The notes beneath the pieces are model-generated. The model saw only the letters and a list, made by a program, of their open reading frames with translations, did not search any database and had not been told where the DNA came from. DNA of 34,117 bases from Bacteroidota bacterium. GTDB lineage: Bacteria > Bacteroidota > Ignavibacteria > UBA10030 > UBA8401. The DNA is taken from assembly GCA_030824295.1 (NCBI GenBank), contig JAVBYA010000057.1, positions 1-34,117 on the forward strand. The letters run 5' to 3'. Shown one piece after another: positions 1 to 6,386 of this stretch; position 1 is the first letter of the stretch; the number at the start of each line of letters is the position of its first letter. The translations under genes were made by a program, and so were the position numbers.

Positions 1-413
1 CTGAATGCTGTTGTCAACGCCCGTACTTTGTGTTTTCGTTTTATGGTTTCTCGGATGATAGGGTATGCCGGATCTTCGCCATCGACAATCACTTCCGCCA
101 ACTGGACCGCATTAGGGGTCAGAACAATATCTATGCGTTCGGCTTGCTTCAAGTCGACAGTGCGTGCTTGTGCTTCAAAACCTACATATGAGAATCGTAA
201 TTTATAGATACCTTTAGACAATGATATTCGATATTCACCCTCAGAGTTGGACACTGTACCGATCTGAGTTCCAACAATGCGGATACTGGCGAATGGCAAT
301 TGTTTTCCCGCCTCATCTCTGATTGTTCCACTTATCGTAGCGGTAGAATCTTGAGACAGCATTGATTGACTCAAGAGAAAAAGATATAGAAACCACATCA
401 GATGATCTTTCAT
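1..413 (-). CDS. Carboxypeptidase-regulatory-like domain / probable DUF5686 outer-membrane protein (5' part only; runs off the left edge)
   Basis: Not in the ORF track; my own translation from ATG at 413 is open to the edge: MKDHLMWFLYLFLLSQSMLSQDSTATISGTIRDEAGKQLPFASIRIVGTQIGTVSNSEGEYRISLSKGIYKLRFSYVGFE...QLAEVIVDGEDPAYPIIRETIKRK. It shows a signal peptide, the CarboxypepD_reg-like pattern (G.I.D..G..LPFA...GT.SN.EG.Y...FSYVG) and the 'EDPAY.IIR' linker I associate with DUF5686 proteins. Confidence 0.8.
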   Translation of the reverse strand, partial: MKDHLMWFLYLFLLSQSMLSQDSTATISGTIRDEAGKQLPFASIRIVGTQIGTVSNSEGEYRISLSKGIYKLRFSYVGFEAQARTVDLKQAERIDIVLTPNAVQLAEVIVDGEDPAYPIIRETIKRKHKVRALTTAF

Positions 414-426
414 AGGCGTAATACTA

Positions 427-448
427 AAGGGCCGACTCAACGGCCCTT
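427..448 (-). terminator. Hairpin between the precursor gene and the DUF5686-like gene (weak terminator or mRNA stabiliser)
   Basis: On the minus strand AAGGGCCG-TTGAGT-CGGCCCTT, an 8-bp perfect stem with only a short U tail. Confidence 0.5.
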
Positions 449-479
449 CCTTTGTCATAGTTCTTTAATTGTGTATTTG

Positions 480-749
480 TTAGAGCGTCATACAGAGGAT
501 ACCAAATATTGCACACGCGGCGACTCCGAACCACGACAGCACCATCGTGAAGCAAAGAGTGGTGAAATGAATACATTCAACCGTTTCGACAGCATCCCCT
601 CCCCTGATACTCTGCATCTCGTCGGCGCTCAATGACACTCCCTGTTCGATCTGCACGTTCGCATCCATTGCCTGCGTCCGCGCGAGCGTTGTCTCGCCGA
701 CGAACAGCAGCCCAAGGAACAGCAAAAGAAATCCAAACGTCTTTTTCAT
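480..749 (-). CDS. Secreted double-glycine-leader precursor peptide (bacteriocin/RiPP-like) with a (C-x6-C)2 core
   Basis: RBS AAGGA before the ATG; Sec-type signal MKKTFGFLLLFLGLLFVGETTLA; leader motif LSADEMQSIRGG; 38-aa core with Cys59/66/79/86; adjacent to a C39 peptidase. Confidence 0.8.
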   Translation of the reverse strand: MKKTFGFLLLFLGLLFVGETTLARTQAMDANVQIEQGVSLSADEMQSIRGGDAVETVECIHFTTLCFTMVLSWFGVAACAIFGILCMTL

Positions 750-901
750 GGTTGTCCTTTTTGAAATAGTGATGAATGGGTTGTTTAGTCCCTCCTCACC
801 GCTGTCCGTCCGATGGTGTCATATCCGTGCGGGGTGCGGGGACAGGCCGCATCCAACACAGCTACGAGTGACCGCCGAACCGGTGAGTCAGGGTTGATTA
901 T

Positions 902-1474
902 TCAATGCCGGAAGATGAGCGTTTCACCGCTCCATCGTTCCTTGAACCGCGCTTCCGGGACCGCCAGACGGCCCACTCCGGGGTCGCGCAGATACACGGT
1001 GTGCCGGACGATACTGTCCACAACGACGAAATGGGATCGGTCGACGAACGCCAGCGCGGGGAGCGGTCCGGTGCGAAGATCATCAAAGGCGAGCTTCCAC
1101 CCTTCCGCATCCACTCCATACCGTTCTGCAGCATCCTTCAGCGCCAGCATCGACGCACCATCCTCCGTCAGCGGGATGCCGGATTCCAGTTCCTGCAATG
1201 GAACGTTCGTGCCGCGGCTTGATAACACCATCTTCAATGCGCTGGGGCCGCAGTTGTTCCGCGTAGTCTGCAGCACGACGCCGTCCCGCCCCAGATACTC
1301 CGTATCATTGAACAGCGACGTGAGTCGGATGTGGGAGCCGGGAACAGCGAGGAACCAGGCCCAGCCGACAGCGGCAAGAACGAAAAGAAATACTAAGAGA
1401 TGTTTCACGGTGATCCGGATCGGGGATGTTCTGTTCACGAATGCGCGGAGCTGTTTCTTCCCAATGTAATCCAT
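902..1474 (-). CDS. Stand-alone C39 family cysteine peptidase with an N-terminal membrane anchor
   Basis: Motifs LQTTRNNCGPSAL (Gln/Cys), SMLALKDAAERYG, HFVVVD (His) and LRDPGVG (Asp); no ABC domains. Start placed at the ATG at 1474 behind GAGGGGG; hydrophobic segment HLLVFLFVLAAVGWAWFLAV. Confidence 0.88.
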   Translation of the reverse strand: MDYIGKKQLRAFVNRTSPIRITVKHLLVFLFVLAAVGWAWFLAVPGSHIRLTSLFNDTEYLGRDGVVLQTTRNNCGPSALKMVLSSRGTNVPLQELESGIPLTEDGASMLALKDAAERYGVDAEGWKLAFDDLRTGPLPALAFVDRSHFVVVDSIVRHTVYLRDPGVGRLAVPEARFKERWSGETLIFRH

Positions 1475-1540
1475 CACCCCCCTCTTTGTCACGGAAAAAG
1501 CATTGTCCATTGAGGTCGGCGAACGATTGGCGGATGGGGA

Positions 1541-1579
1541 GAAAACGGCGATGCCATGACCGGACGGCCATGGCATCGC
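1541..1579 (-). terminator. Intrinsic terminator after DPP III (member of a repeated hairpin family)
   Basis: On the minus strand GCGATGCCATGGCCG-TC-CGGTCATGGCATCGC followed by CGTTTTCT. Confidence 0.7.
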
Positions 1580-1602
1580 AAGAGAGGGAGCAAGAGGGGT
1601 GG

Positions 1603-3696
1603 TTACTTCAGTTTGAGCGTCGTGCGGGCCTTCGCCTTCTCCTCTTTCGTGAAGGCGGAGTATTCGAGCATCTGTTTGCCGAGGTCGAGCGGGTAGACGA
1701 CCTTCACATCGGTCACTTTGCCTTTGGCATCCGTCACCGGTTCCAGCTTCGGCATGACGAATCCCACGTACACGGCGCGGTCCAGTTTCTCCATGCGGGA
1801 CAATACTTCATCACGCAGTGCTGTGTCGATCTTGAATCCGTACGTATCGATGAGCGTCTTCGCCGCCGCCAGGTCCCCTTCGGATTTGATCCGCTGCACT
1901 TCCGCCAGCAGCCGTCCCACGCCGTCGCGCATCTTCTCGAAGCTCGTCACGCGGAAGTAGGTCTTCCCCTCCTTCGTTGTCCGTTCGATGCAGTCTGCAT
2001 TCTTCCAGAGCCAGTGGATGATCATCTGGCGGTTCTTCATATGGTCCTCTTCCAGCTGGTCTTGTCCTTTCGGTACACGCTGCAGCTGTACGAGCGCGGA
2101 GTTCCGCACCTCTTTGGTGTACATCGCCTTCACGATATCCATCGTGTTGGGGATGATGCCGATCTCGACGAGCTTCGGGTCCCAGATATGATAGAGCGCC
2201 ACAAGGTCGGCGCGCGCTTCCTCCAGCGTGGAGTAATAGCCGGGGAGGGCCGCCTGCGGATCGACCGTGAGGGAGGGCGAGACCTTGCCGGAGGCATGGC
2301 CGAGCACTTCGTGGAGCGCAGTGTGCATATTGTCCGCCAGTGAACCGTACTTCTCGGAGAGCATCATCTCTTCTTCGTCGTACGCGAACTCCTTCAGGAT
2401 ATCCTTCCCGCCGGTCTTCTCGTACGCATCGACGATATTGAAGAGCGTCACCGATTTACTGCCGTGCAGTTCGCGTACATCCTGTTCGTTCGGCAGATTG
2501 ATGCCGATGGCGCTGACCGGTCCGGCGTCGCCCGTCTCCACCACCACGTTAATGACGGTGTACTTCAGCGGTTTCACATCCGCTTTCCTGTACTTCGCAT
2601 CCCACGGCATGCGGTCCTCGAAGTACTGGGCGTTGGTCCCGACCTTCTGGAAGAGTTCCGTCAGTTCCGGATTGGCGAAATTCACGACCGATTCGAACTG
2701 TCCTTTGGCTCCGCGTGCATCCAGATAGACCTCGATGAAGCCGTGGATCATATCCACCTGCGACTCCGTCTCCTTCACCCAGCCGATGTTGTACTCGCGC
2801 CAGTCGTTCAGGTCCCCCGTGCGGTAGAAGGTGATGAGCTTATCGAGATTCGCTGCCTGGCGTTTGTTGGAAGCGTACGCTTTCGCCTTCTCCAGATAAC
2901 CGATCGCCACCTGCAGGTCCTCGGCATACATGCCGGCAGGGATCTTCCCGCCGAGATGTGTGTTGCCGGTGCGATAGACCTTTTCGACGATCGTTCCGTT
3001 CTCCTTCACCACTTTGGAATTGAGCGGGTTCTTCTCATTCCCGGCCTTCGCCCATGCATCCACTTCGGCGAATGTGACCCCTTCATAATTATTGTTGGCG
3101 CTGCCGGCGATCATATCCTCCCCCGGCGTCTTGTTGGTCTGTACCGGTTCGAATGATCTGTCGAAGATGGAACGGCGGAGACGATCCAATTTTTGATCGA
3201 TGGTCTCACCCCTGGTCAACGTGACCGATGCGCCGTTGAAGATGGCCGCTTTCACCGCAAGGGAGAATTGTTCCGGAGTGAAGAGCGGGACGAACTTGCG
3301 GGAGGTGATGTTGTCGTACTGCGAGTTGTTCACCCAGAAGAGTTTCGTATAGAGAACGAACTGCTCCATCACGGCAGGGTCGATCCCTTTGGGATGCGTG
3401 TACACCGCTTCGAGCAGCTCGCGGATCTCCAGTGCGTGACGGTGGCGCTGGTCCACCGCGATATCCCGCGCGGCGATGGCGGACTTGTACAGATAGTAGG
3501 TGAAGATCTTCTCCTTCGCGGAGAGCTTCTCGAATCCGTCCGCATAGAGCTGGACGATGCGCACCGGGCCGACGTCGCCCATCTGCAGTTTCTCGATCGT
3601 GTATTGTCGTTCCATAAGGTTCGGCTGGGTTGGTTTGTCCTTGTGCTGTGCGCTGAGTGCGGTGATCATGATCAGTGTGAGTATGAATGCTTTCAT
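1603..3696 (-). CDS. Dipeptidyl peptidase III (peptidase M49), exported
   Basis: Hexapeptide zinc motif HEVLGH, EEARAD motif, GFIEVY.D.RG.KG.FE and IGINLPN; N-terminal signal peptide. Confidence 0.93.
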   Translation of the reverse strand: MKAFILTLIMITALSAQHKDKPTQPNLMERQYTIEKLQMGDVGPVRIVQLYADGFEKLSAKEKIFTYYLYKSAIAARDIAVDQRHRHALEIRELLEAVYTHPKGIDPAVMEQFVLYTKLFWVNNSQYDNITSRKFVPLFTPEQFSLAVKAAIFNGASVTLTRGETIDQKLDRLRRSIFDRSFEPVQTNKTPGEDMIAGSANNNYEGVTFAEVDAWAKAGNEKNPLNSKVVKENGTIVEKVYRTGNTHLGGKIPAGMYAEDLQVAIGYLEKAKAYASNKRQAANLDKLITFYRTGDLNDWREYNIGWVKETESQVDMIHGFIEVYLDARGAKGQFESVVNFANPELTELFQKVGTNAQYFEDRMPWDAKYRKADVKPLKYTVINVVVETGDAGPVSAIGINLPNEQDVRELHGSKSVTLFNIVDAYEKTGGKDILKEFAYDEEEMMLSEKYGSLADNMHTALHEVLGHASGKVSPSLTVDPQAALPGYYSTLEEARADLVALYHIWDPKLVEIGIIPNTMDIVKAMYTKEVRNSALVQLQRVPKGQDQLEEDHMKNRQMIIHWLWKNADCIERTTKEGKTYFRVTSFEKMRDGVGRLLAEVQRIKSEGDLAAAKTLIDTYGFKIDTALRDEVLSRMEKLDRAVYVGFVMPKLEPVTDAKGKVTDVKVVYPLDLGKQMLEYSAFTKEEKAKARTTLKLK

Positions 3697-5057: not shown

Positions 5058-6386
5058 ATGGAAGAGACACTGCAGAGGAATACATTCACCAAAGAGGCCG
5101 CGGTCTTCCCGTTCTGTAAAGGGTGCGGACATCATCACTATGTGAAGCATCTGGACGAAGCGTTCGTCTCCTTGCAGCTTGACCCGAAACAGGTCTGCAT
5201 CGTCAGCGACATCGGCTGCATCGGCATCCTGGATTCGCTCTTCGCTGAACCGCATACGTTCCACACCACACACGGACGTTCCACCGCGTTCGCCACCGGC
5301 ATCGCCCTGGCGGACGGCATCCTGCACGACGCGAAGCTCAAGACCGTGGTGGTGATCGGCGACGGCGGTGCAACGATCGGTCTGCTCCATCTGGTGAACG
5401 CTGCGCTGATGAACATCAACGTCACGGTGGTCCTCGCCAACAATTTCCTCTACGGGATGACCGGCGGACAGCATTCGCAGTTCTCACCGCTGGAGTTCGT
5501 CACCCCGACCACGCCGGCCGGCAACATCGTTCCGCCGATGGACATCTGCGCCATCATGAAGAGCTGCGGCGCCACGTACATCCGCCAGGCAGCGGCAACG
5601 GACAAGAATCTCGGCACCATCATCGCAGATGCCATCGCACATCCCGGGTTCGCCATCGTGGAAGTGCTGGAGCTCTGCACCGAGTGGGCCACACCCTTCA
5701 ACAAGATCGACGGGAAGATGCTCAACGGTTCCGTCCACCAGGAGGATTCCGGCGGAGCAGCGGAGCGGAAGGATTTCTCATCCCTCTATAAAGAGAAGGT
5801 GCTCGGCGCACCGAAGAAGAGCATCGATGACACCATCATTCCGCATTTCACCTCCACGCTGAACGGAACACGCCGCATCGTCCTGGCGGGAACGGCCGGC
5901 GAGAAGGTACAGCTGGCGTCGTTCCTCTATATGAAGTCCGCCATTGCCAGCGGTCTGCACGCCACGCAGAAGAACGACAATCCGGTCACGCAGGGCTCGG
6001 GATTCTCGCTGTCGGAACTATGCGTAAGCAATGAAGAGATCCTCTTCACCGGCATCGACCGGCCGGATGCGGTGATCATCGCATCGGCGGACGGATTGAA
6101 GGAAGTGCGGGCGAACGGCACGCTCGCGCGCTGCACACCGGATTCCATCGTCGTGGCAGAGCAAACGCTGCCGGAGTTCGAATGTTCCGGGAAGGTCTCC
6201 CGCCTGCCGCTCCGCGCGGTCTGCACCGGCAGCCGCGCTGCATTGAGTGCGCTTGCAGCACTGAACATGGCCAAAGGCTGGGTATCGCAGGATGCCCTGT
6301 GGGAGATGATCGACGCTAAATTCAAGGAAAAAGGAGCGGCCTTCCACCGCGATATCGAAGCGCTGTTGCCGTTCATCAAAATATAG
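5058..6386 (+). CDS. 2-oxoacid:ferredoxin oxidoreductase beta subunit fused to a C-terminal gamma-like domain
   Basis: FCKGCGH, DIGC, HTTHGR, TPP motif GDG...NN..YGMTGGQ.S and LELC; then IVLAGTAGEKVQ...TQGSGFSLSEL...PDAVII, which resembles a POR gamma domain. Confidence 0.88.
   Translation: MEETLQRNTFTKEAAVFPFCKGCGHHHYVKHLDEAFVSLQLDPKQVCIVSDIGCIGILDSLFAEPHTFHTTHGRSTAFATGIALADGILHDAKLKTVVVIGDGGATIGLLHLVNAALMNINVTVVLANNFLYGMTGGQHSQFSPLEFVTPTTPAGNIVPPMDICAIMKSCGATYIRQAAATDKNLGTIIADAIAHPGFAIVEVLELCTEWATPFNKIDGKMLNGSVHQEDSGGAAERKDFSSLYKEKVLGAPKKSIDDTIIPHFTSTLNGTRRIVLAGTAGEKVQLASFLYMKSAIASGLHATQKNDNPVTQGSGFSLSELCVSNEEILFTGIDRPDAVIIASADGLKEVRANGTLARCTPDSIVVAEQTLPEFECSGKVSRLPLRAVCTGSRAALSALAALNMAKGWVSQDALWEMIDAKFKEKGAAFHRDIEALLPFIKI

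Follow-up and report, generated by a model that had tools for sequence, protein, structure and literature searches.

A candidate gene pair for processing a bacteriocin-like peptide beyond the cytoplasm in an Ignavibacteria genome

The complete 34,117-base contig JAVBYA010000057.1 of a Bacteroidota bacterium (assembly GCA_030824295.1; class Ignavibacteria), hereafter the window, starts with four minus-strand genes identified with Pfam and a list of open reading frames (ORFs). They encode an M49 peptidase, a 190-residue C39 peptidase, an 89-residue peptide and a TonB-receptor-type protein. The subject of this analysis is the middle pair, the C39 gene (902-1474) and the peptide gene (480-749, with the stop codon at 480-482), together with a structured RNA in the spacer between them. 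Both ORFs lie on the strand and at the positions given in the original prediction, which was made from the DNA sequence alone, and its choice of the C39 start is upheld. We consider it likely that the two genes constitute a module in which a bacteriocin-like peptide is matured extracytoplasmically. This interpretation is supported by comparative evidence rather than by experiment.

The product of the C39 gene matches Pfam family PF03412 over residues 66-188 (101.6 bits, cut-off 22; E 4e-29). Its N-terminus is basic and is followed by a single hydrophobic segment predicted to form a membrane helix at about residues 26-44 (positions 1343-1399) and a catalytic domain comprising residues 62-190. 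Residues Q69, C75 (codon 1250-1252, located by alignment to homologues), H148 and D164 are invariant in all 18 aligned stand-alone C39 homologues. The protein holds one cysteine only; among proteins of solved structure, the LahT150 protease domain is nearest to it in sequence (6mpz, E 9.6e-14). Transporters of the ATP-binding cassette (ABC) type that include a peptidase (PCATs) combine C39 with the membrane and ATPase domains of ABC proteins in about 700 residues, against 190 residues here, and the NCBIfam exporter models TIGR01193 and TIGR03796 match the window protein with their N-terminal domain only (85.7 versus 853.3 bits and 29.9 versus 523.85 bits, respectively). Thus, the protein is what the original prediction described: a stand-alone C39 with intact Gln/Cys/His/Asp and no ABC domains, in which a basic N-terminus is followed by one hydrophobic helix. 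The genome to which the window belongs (508 contigs, 90.5% complete) contains a single PF03412 match and no ABC-fused C39, and a local C39 hidden Markov model (HMM) run over all of its ORFs also finds one match. Processing by a PCAT in trans was rejected because a second PF03412 match is absent at 90.5% genome completeness. The FapD model NF058616 gives 31.9 bits against a cut-off of 330, and the surroundings contain no fap genes, the neighbours being the M49 and TonB-receptor-type genes. A profile search against 1.84 billion cluster representatives returned 203 matches at E<=1e-30 (clusters at 50% identity), of which the best 150 are 110-345 residues long.

The 89-residue ORF shows the three parts that had been read from its sequence, namely a signal-like region, a pro-region ending in a double-glycine (GG) leader and a 38-residue hydrophobic core. 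Residues 1-23 (681-749) include an MKK n-region, an h-region of 14-15 residues and small residues at -3 and -1, with sites after residues 23 and 27; the region is nearly invariant among five close precursor homologues. These features agree with a signal of the general secretory (Sec) pathway, which has a basic n-region, an h-region of 7-15 residues and small residues at -3/-1, as judged by simple home-made rules. Among 81 distinct peptides, the uncharged h-run has a median length of 15 residues, and a -3/-1 site precedes the leader in 79. A lipoprotein signal was rejected, since the window signal has no cysteine. The pro-region (residues 24-51; 597-680) ends in the leader motif LSADEMQSIRGG at residues 40-51, in which positions -4, -7 and -12 are hydrophobic (I48, M45 and L40 ahead of G50-G51) and -8 is a glutamate; the motif aligns in 25 of 25 peptides. 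While classical leaders of this type, which carry GG, GA or GS at -2/-1, start at the initiator methionine and are about 15-30 residues long, here the GG is found at residues 50-51, behind the 23-residue signal-like region. The predicted C39 cut after G50-G51 would leave the core (residues 52-89; 483-596), as delimited by the cysteine pattern, the homologue comparison and an AlphaFold2 model.

The precursor matches no Pfam family, and all its NCBIfam matches are below the cut-off, including ComC (16.9 versus 50 bits) and the lichenicidin A2 family (17.4 versus 32.95 bits). A chance ORF was rejected on account of four close homologues of 89-90 residues and conserved synteny. The AlphaFold2 model, built from a 29-row alignment (mean predicted local distance difference test (pLDDT) 75), opens with a helix (residues 2-22), passes through disorder into a short helix within the leader (42-48), is interrupted at the GG and closes with two core helices, 52-69 and 73-88 (pLDDT about 90). 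Foldseek found no match for this model in the PDB at E<=0.001 (best E 1.8), and the best ESM Atlas score, 0.81, is below the meaningful level.

Conservation of the precursor changes at the predicted cleavage site. Over residues 1-51, the four close homologues share 51, 47, 48 and 37 positions with the window precursor, and over the 38 core positions they share 13, 13, 9 and 9; within the core, only the four cysteines and a Ser-Trp pair are invariant. A 6,386-nucleotide (nt) DNA contig of a related strain, from another sequencing run (X2), matches window positions 598-1650 with 14 substitutions and two indels (about 98.7% identity) and is unalignable beyond 597/598, the codon boundary after G51. 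As this break falls exactly after the GG codons, it suggests that the core and the DNA following it may have been replaced in a cassette-like manner. The core has a grand average of hydropathy (GRAVY) of 1.53 and three charged residues, all within its first seven positions. Its cysteines, at precursor positions 59, 66, 79 and 86, form two C-X6-C pairs separated by 12 residues (spacing 6/12/6). Cores with two, four or six cysteines account for 74 of the 81 distinct peptides (43, 25 and 6, respectively), the others having none (4), three (1) or five (2). Cysteine spacing is symmetric, the commonest type being 10/9/10, and the two-cysteine types have one cysteine near each end. Together with the AlphaFold2 model, this symmetry points to a helix-turn-helix hairpin, in which C59-C86 and C66-C79 would form nested disulfides.

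The pairing of peptide and stand-alone C39 across genomes exceeds chance. A protein search of 61 related genomes found stand-alone C39 proteins in 12, the window's own genome included, all belonging to one family, and an ABC-fused C39 in one further genome. A pattern scan of species-representative genomes contributed the best 80 of 132 relatives. These are metagenome-assembled genomes (MAGs) labelled Ignavibacteria, Ignavibacteriales and Bacteroidota, many Acidobacteriota (Thermoanaerobaculia, Ca. Multivorans and Holophagales) and single genomes of Latescibacterota, Poribacteria, Planctomycetota, Gemmatimonadota and Aminicenantia; the C39 ORF is shorter than 300 residues in all 80 loci. Candidate peptides were called with a strict detector, which demands a positive n-region, an uncharged hydrophobic window of 10 residues, a GG-leader pattern and a core of 18-90 residues. 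Of 92 loci, 72 have at least one such peptide no further than 1.5 kb from the C39 (69 of 89 distinct loci when three locus pairs that represent one region counted twice are taken into account), and all 86 near candidates are downstream of the C39 on the same strand. The check suggested in the original prediction, for an ORF with signal, GG and cysteines consistently next to stand-alone C39 genes, is thus positive. One near candidate is a fragment of a membrane protein and was excluded from later statistics. Near stand-alone C39 genes the density of candidates is 0.285 per kb versus 0.0086 per kb in the far flanks (about 30-fold), and two of the three far-flank candidates are plainly additional family members. 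The background in the window's own genome is 33 candidates in 3.40 Mb (0.0097 per kb). Only three of these 33 have an even, non-zero number of core cysteines: the window peptide, a peptide on contig C296 discussed below and one seemingly out-of-frame ORF.

Metagenome scans gave little for the window's own subfamily: a scan with precursor alignment A4 found no relative, and one with A6 found nine loci, none from this subfamily. The context of the closest precursor homologues (P0002, P0003 and P0010-P0013) is seen through the one DNA contig of run X2. In six acidobacteriotal loci (L062, L063, L064, L076, L078 and L093), the first ORF after the C39 encodes a signal-bearing, proline-rich, cysteine-containing peptide of 75-110 residues without a GG. 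These peptides are located between the C39 and the GG or GA peptides, of which several loci have two or three in a row.

The original prediction also proposed that the C39 is oriented N-in/C-out, with its catalytic domain in the periplasm, and this topology is supported by three features of the relatives. One hydrophobic segment precedes the catalytic domain in all 84 distinct homologues with an intact N-terminus, and the 15 residues on its N-terminal side contain on average 4.05 lysines and arginines versus 2.12 on the C-terminal side (more in 69 of 84, equal in 11 and fewer in 4). A gene for a TlpA/ResA-like thioredoxin lies directly upstream of the C39 gene in 72 of the 80 pattern-scan loci, often overlapping its start; two of the eight loci without it are cut by contig ends. 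The encoded proteins contain AhpC-TSA/Redoxin domains with a CxxC motif and an N-terminal helix of their own. TlpA-type domains behind a positively flanked N-terminal helix face the periplasm. Moreover, six of the seven longest representatives checked are fusions with the order helix, thioredoxin (AhpC/TSA, Redoxin) and C39 (P0054, P0087, P0107, P0114, P0126 and P0153). The N-terminal helix is found in five of them, P0126 lacking an N-terminal segment. Since no hydrophobic segment separates the thioredoxin and C39 domains in the six fusions, the two domains must be located on the same side of the membrane. The four cores without cysteines occur in four of the loci that lack a thioredoxin gene. 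In this subfamily (L031 of Latescibacterota and L043 of Planctomycetota), the gene immediately upstream of the C39 has roughly 850 codons. The L043 version encodes a GT2 glycosyltransferase-TPR protein according to Pfam, and the N-terminus in L031 looks alike by eye. Downstream, L031 has Rce1/CAAX-like and Yip1 genes, and the L043 locus breaks off shortly past the peptide.

From the C39 stop to the peptide start, loci share a spacer of conserved length and sequence, which contains a structured RNA of about 105 nt (789-894, minus strand), recognized from alignments, RNAalifold and a covariance model, R1. The RNA starts just past the C39 stop and ends 39 nt before the peptide ATG. It folds into a long irregular hairpin (P1, P1b, P3, P2a and P2), the apical loop of which (840-845) is complementary to a 6-nt bulge (802-807), forming a putative pseudoknot. 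RNAalifold on 15 loci gave 25 pairs, 19 of them with compensatory changes. With the pseudoknot included, 84.3% of alignment cells are paired versus 72.0% in shuffles (0 of 500 reach this value), the covariation score is 0.464 versus 0.259 for shuffled alignments and at most 0.174 with partners slid, and 34 of 41 pairs are changed on both sides versus a shuffled mean of 23.8 (0 of 500); in all three comparisons the alignment, having been fitted to 25 of the 41 pairs, favours the structure. In a column-free test of the pseudoknot, loops form on average 5.2 contiguous Watson-Crick pairs with their own bulge versus 3.6 with those of others (0 of 2000 permutations), and at least seven different complementary loop/bulge sequence pairs occur. 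The window copy alone folds alike (-50.8 kcal/mol, z -2.78), with six bases of its 7-nt apical loop complementary to the 6-nt bulge.

Model R1 detects the RNA in 29 of 63 sources and gives one match in the whole window. Each match lies on the strand of the genes, immediately upstream of a peptide gene, even where another gene intervenes between peptide and C39. The RNA is found in 12 of the 61 relatives, once in each and at the C39/peptide locus in all but G047, and in 4 of 151 genomes in a class-wide sample. A search of Rfam 15 with window positions 400-1700 at E<=10 returned only a low chance match on a hairpin at 1548-1579 and none for the RNA; with 11 other copies at E<=1, only a chance miRNA match elsewhere was obtained. 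The element, which has no Rfam family, is a candidate for a new cis-regulatory class. As it leaves the ribosome-binding site free and no U-run follows it, we favour a leader that stabilizes or regulates the peptide mRNA; ligand sensing is possible. At two RNA-linked loci without a C39 (L113 in G047 and L122 in G101), the signal runs straight into a six-cysteine core with no GG leader. These Sec-only peptides can be regarded as a natural control, and by analogy they support reading the N-terminus of the window precursor as a signal. At L113 (965-1796) the RNA precedes peptides of 66-67 residues, two genes for which are in tandem, and at L122 it likewise precedes a peptide of 66-67 residues with signal and six cysteines. 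Genome G101 holds four copies of the RNA; the copy at L120 is followed by a transposase-like ORF and not by a peptide gene.

Genes that flank the module in relatives, namely those for the thioredoxin, a secreted protein of 170 residues (p170) and a Yip1/YknW-like membrane protein, are missing beside the window pair. A second locus in the same genome, on contig C296 (L124, 3488-6231, minus strand), carries co-directional genes for a TlpA-like protein, a p170-like protein, a second signal+GG peptide, Yip1 and a MauE/DoxX-like protein; no C39 is present there. The TlpA-like gene is the best match of the genome to the thioredoxin HMM (50.6 bits), and the p170-like gene (5186-5698) is its sole p170 match. 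The second peptide has four cysteines in the arrangement C-X6-C ... C-X6-C. The RNA model also has a weak match over its full length on C296, in the same direction (18.9 bits, E 0.0016, filters off). Because this locus holds a peptide but no C39, the single C39 of the window may serve both peptides, with C296 supplying redox and immunity-type functions; we infer that the window pair is half of a split system. In other phyla, two kinds of gene set follow the peptide genes: one encodes Yip1 with an ABC ATPase and a large permease, the other Yip1 with Rce1/CAAX-like proteins. All of these gene types accompany peptide toxins. The p170 protein, secreted, conserved and about 170 residues long, belongs to no Pfam or NCBIfam family. 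Its model (pLDDT 88.4) has a mixed alpha/beta fold without a PDB match at E<=0.001, and no function follows from the best superposition, on the DUF4309 protein 4ygt (TMq 0.41, E 8e-3). The thioredoxin partner and its fusions, the second locus and the structured RNA between the genes had all been missed in the original prediction.

Taken together, these observations are consistent with the following pathway. The mRNA for the 89-residue precursor would have a structured 5' leader with a pseudoknot; once translated, the precursor would be carried over the inner membrane by its Sec signal, after which signal peptidase I probably removes residues 1-23. The resulting pro-peptide would retain a minimal GG leader, and the C39, tethered by one N-terminal helix at the periplasmic face, would cut it after G50-G51, as family chemistry and co-conservation suggest. 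The released core is expected to fold into the hairpin with disulfides C59-C86 and C66-C79. A TlpA-like thioredoxin and a MauE-like membrane partner may make or proof-read these disulfides; the thioredoxin gene is directly upstream of the C39, or fused to it, in most relatives, and in the window's own genome both partners are encoded at the second locus. The product would most likely be a membrane-active antibacterial peptide, which is the least certain step, and immunity could be provided by Yip1/YknW-type membrane proteins or, in relatives, by ABC or CAAX-type proteins. Our opinion is evenly balanced on a broader proposal, according to which the locus represents a widespread and hitherto undescribed extracytoplasmic route by which diderms mature ribosomal peptides, from Sec export through leader removal by a membrane-tethered C39, operon-linked or fused to a TlpA-like thioredoxin, to hydrophobic hairpins that are hypervariable and stapled by disulfides. 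Among genomes of Ignavibacteria type, this route would be coupled to a new pseudoknotted RNA dedicated to secreted cysteine-rich peptide genes and maybe sensing a ligand or protein.

Several other explanations need to be considered. The product could be a resident small membrane protein, inserted by its signal or a signal anchor, whose core stays in the inner membrane of the producer as an embedded hairpin and for which clipping by the C39 is a maturation or regulatory step. The hydrophobicity of the core, with its few charges at one end, the membrane tether of the C39 itself and the absence of an outer-membrane export function or immunity gene beside the window pair would all fit. By contrast, hypervariable cores behind a nearly invariant pre-pro region and a DNA break exactly at the cleavage site are the pattern of a diversifying toxin or pherotype rather than of a housekeeping membrane protein, and the peptides of relatives sit beside Yip1/YknW-like, ABC ATPase plus permease or Rce1/CAAX-like genes; we regard this explanation as unlikely. 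Classical processing in the cytoplasm, with the N-terminal stretch as an extended leader, the C39 oriented N-out/C-in and some exporter secreting the peptide, has precedent on its side, as the characterized GG leaders are all cut by the cytoplasmic C39 of ABC exporters (PMC12457901, PMC12219008, PMC5557850). It is nevertheless at odds with the positive charges on the N-terminal side of the C39 helix, with the fusions, in which the C39 follows a thioredoxin domain behind a single N-terminal helix, with the lack of a PCAT in the genome at its 90.5% completeness, with the co-occurrence of even cysteine counts and a TlpA-like partner, and with the Sec-only peptides behind the same RNA where the C39 is absent. 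Such processing thus appears highly improbable.

The two remaining alternatives concern the partner and the product. The TlpA-like protein might serve the C39 by keeping its catalytic cysteine reduced, the core cysteines being oxidized by general machinery or not at all. In most loci it is indeed the C39 and not the peptide to which its gene is linked or fused, the window C39 has a single cysteine, and proteins of the TlpA family are typically reductants. Yet the four loci with cysteine-free cores keep the cysteine protease without a thioredoxin gene, and in the window's own genome the thioredoxin gene is away from the C39, together with the second peptide, Yip1 and the MauE-like gene. The roles in serving protease and peptide are also compatible rather than exclusive, and a role for the protease instead of the peptide seems rather improbable to us. 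Alternatively, the mature peptide could be a signal (pheromone) and not an antibacterial toxin. GG leaders also serve pheromones, the precursor has weak, sub-cut-off matches to ComC and a lantibiotic family, and variable cores behind conserved leaders fit pherotypes as well. However, no sensor kinase or response regulator is found beside the genes in the window or the inspected loci, the neighbours are of immunity type and the cores are far more hydrophobic than typical diffusible signals, which makes a pheromone decidedly improbable.

A number of observations weigh against the proposed Sec-and-C39 module. The strict detector is negative in 20 of the 92 loci. By eye, 14 of these 20 (L011, L019, L026, L034, L035, L046, L052, L055, L062, L063, L064, L078, L093 and L094) have a peptide with a signal and a G-G/A-type leader, the peptide of L040 is broken by a frameshift, and L075 and L085 stop just past the C39; no peptide was seen on inspection within 1.8 kb in L029 and L051, and L076 has one only at 2.3 kb. 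The related genomes in these counts are not independent, and the four loci without core cysteines and TlpA form one peptide family and represent roughly one event. Assignments of both the signal and the N-in/C-out topology rest on simple home-made rules. Within the window, the pair has no thioredoxin, Yip1 or other immunity-type gene beside it, nor is an exporter seen; the connection with C296, a contig ending about 50 bases past its thioredoxin gene, is circumstantial. An oxidase role of the TlpA-like partner is not a given, since TlpA/ResA-type proteins are usually reductants. Sec may release so hydrophobic a core sideways into the inner membrane, and the exit of the core from the membrane and its crossing of the outer membrane are unexplained. 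A co-fold of the C39 domain with the pro-peptide, a check suggested in the original prediction, is positive with a score of 0.41 against 0.00 for the best of three controls, the runs agreeing in at least 78% of contacts with a partner pLDDT of at least 56. Of 80 solved complexes, 58 reach the mark, as do 2 of 110 mismatched pairs; at scores of 0.60 or below, this holds for only 7 of the 80 and for both of the passing mismatches. This support for a leader-C39 contact is weak, and the pass may reflect likeness to known structures because complexes of leaders with PCATs have already been solved. Expression evidence is also weak, a hint from three short, low-depth contigs of RNA libraries, which can carry DNA. 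Two metatranscriptome runs of one study have contigs of about 240 nt at 611-854 and 643-880, covering the RNA leader and the 5' part of the peptide gene, and one run of another study has 178 nt inside the C39 gene (940-1117).

Both the enzyme and the leader are of known kinds, and the proposed pathway matches none described in the open-access texts found. The closest enzymatic parallel are the PCATs (PCAT1, ComA, LahT and SunT), which share the C39 fold, the Gln/Cys/His/Asp residues and a leader with glycines at -2/-1 and hydrophobic side chains at -4, -7 and -12, of which those at -7 and -12 fill pockets of the C39 domain (PMC12457901). PCAT systems cut the leader in the cytoplasm (PMC12457901, PMC12219008), whereas the window C39 lacks the ATPase and transmembrane domains, being preceded by one helix at its N-terminus, and is most likely directed towards the periplasm, and its substrate carries the leader after a Sec-type signal rather than at the N-terminus, so that export would be uncoupled from cleavage. 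Bacteroidetocins (class IIf) come from the same phylum in the wide sense and have a GG leader, a four-cysteine mature peptide of about 40 residues and clusters with genes for a thiol oxidoreductase and a multi-pass membrane protein, which here are found only at the second locus (PMC6671954). They differ in their 15-residue leader without a Sec signal and in their need for a peptidase-domain ABC transporter (PMC6671954), and no PCAT was found in the genome studied here. FapD of the Pseudomonas Fap amyloid system is a C39 that works extracytoplasmically after Sec export; unlike the window protein, it is soluble with a cleavable signal, its substrate is not known and the Fap proteins have no canonical GG leaders (PMC5557850). 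In the open-access literature, FapD was the only periplasmic, stand-alone or membrane-anchored C39 found, and no paper joining C39, TlpA and bacteriocin, nor a description of a Sec signal ahead of a GG leader, was found. The helices of glycocins have the C-X6-C spacing observed here. Glycocins (sublancin and glycocin F) further have the two-helix hairpin with nested disulfides that is predicted here, a GG-type leader and thiol-disulfide oxidoreductases in their clusters, but require a glycosyltransferase and a PCAT and are known from Firmicutes (PMC12457901). No glycosyltransferase adjoins the window pair, the remaining genome not having been searched for one. Heat-stable enterotoxin and SDP of B. 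subtilis are pre-pro peptides with Sec export, a second maturation step and disulfides formed outside the cytoplasm. Bufferins, too, are ribosomally synthesized and post-translationally modified peptides whose precursors have Sec signals (PMC11626156). None of the three is known to use a GG leader or a C39 for its second cut.

Among the leaders of ribosomal peptide natural products, the GG type is the commonest. It is assumed to imply cleavage in the cytoplasm by an ABC exporter; at this locus the chemistry appears to be periplasmic and uncoupled from export. The original prediction held that genome miners would overlook such peptides. This is in line with regex-based miners anchoring the GG motif at the N-terminus (PMC12219008), while here it is found at residues 50-51. 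A search that starts from PCATs, or that requires the GG near an N-terminal anchor, would pass over such peptides, a hidden reservoir associated with at least 203 protease clusters (50% identity, E<=1e-30). The precursors described here are candidate canonical-leader substrates for an extracytoplasmic C39, the only studied example of which, FapD, is without a known substrate. A signal, a leader and one small protease could also form an expression module for disulfide-rich peptides in Gram-negative hosts, and the RNA, with its strong covariation and pseudoknot, would offer a fresh cis-regulatory class.

The remaining features of the locus concern the limits of the transcription unit. The M49 gene (1603-3696, minus strand, stop at 1603) is the 5' neighbour of the C39 gene and is followed by a terminator-like hairpin (1548-1579, minus strand) with a 14-pair stem including nine GC pairs, a 4-nt loop and a subsequent T-run. 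This hairpin sets the M49 gene apart. In view of the hairpin and of a purine-rich, Shine-Dalgarno-like stretch immediately 5' of the ATG at 1474, the start chosen for the C39 is correct and the C39 and peptide genes are a unit of their own. A longer C39 ORF from 1576 was rejected, as it would cross the hairpin and the homologues begin near the helix. Matches to sigma-70-type promoters in the window are not above shuffles (3 versus 2.3 +/- 1.4), and no promoter is claimed. A GC-rich palindromic hairpin (427-448), located in the short stretch that separates the peptide stop from the following gene, is flagged on the plus strand only, and termination on the minus strand there is possible. The TonB-receptor-type gene, with a CarboxypepD_reg domain in Pfam, lies 3' of the peptide gene on the minus strand and runs off the contig end. 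In another MAG (L016, 3-1901), a homologous M49 peptidase gene, recognized by eye, is located upstream of a thioredoxin-C39-peptide cluster, so that the locus in the window may represent a reduced form at a syntenic position.

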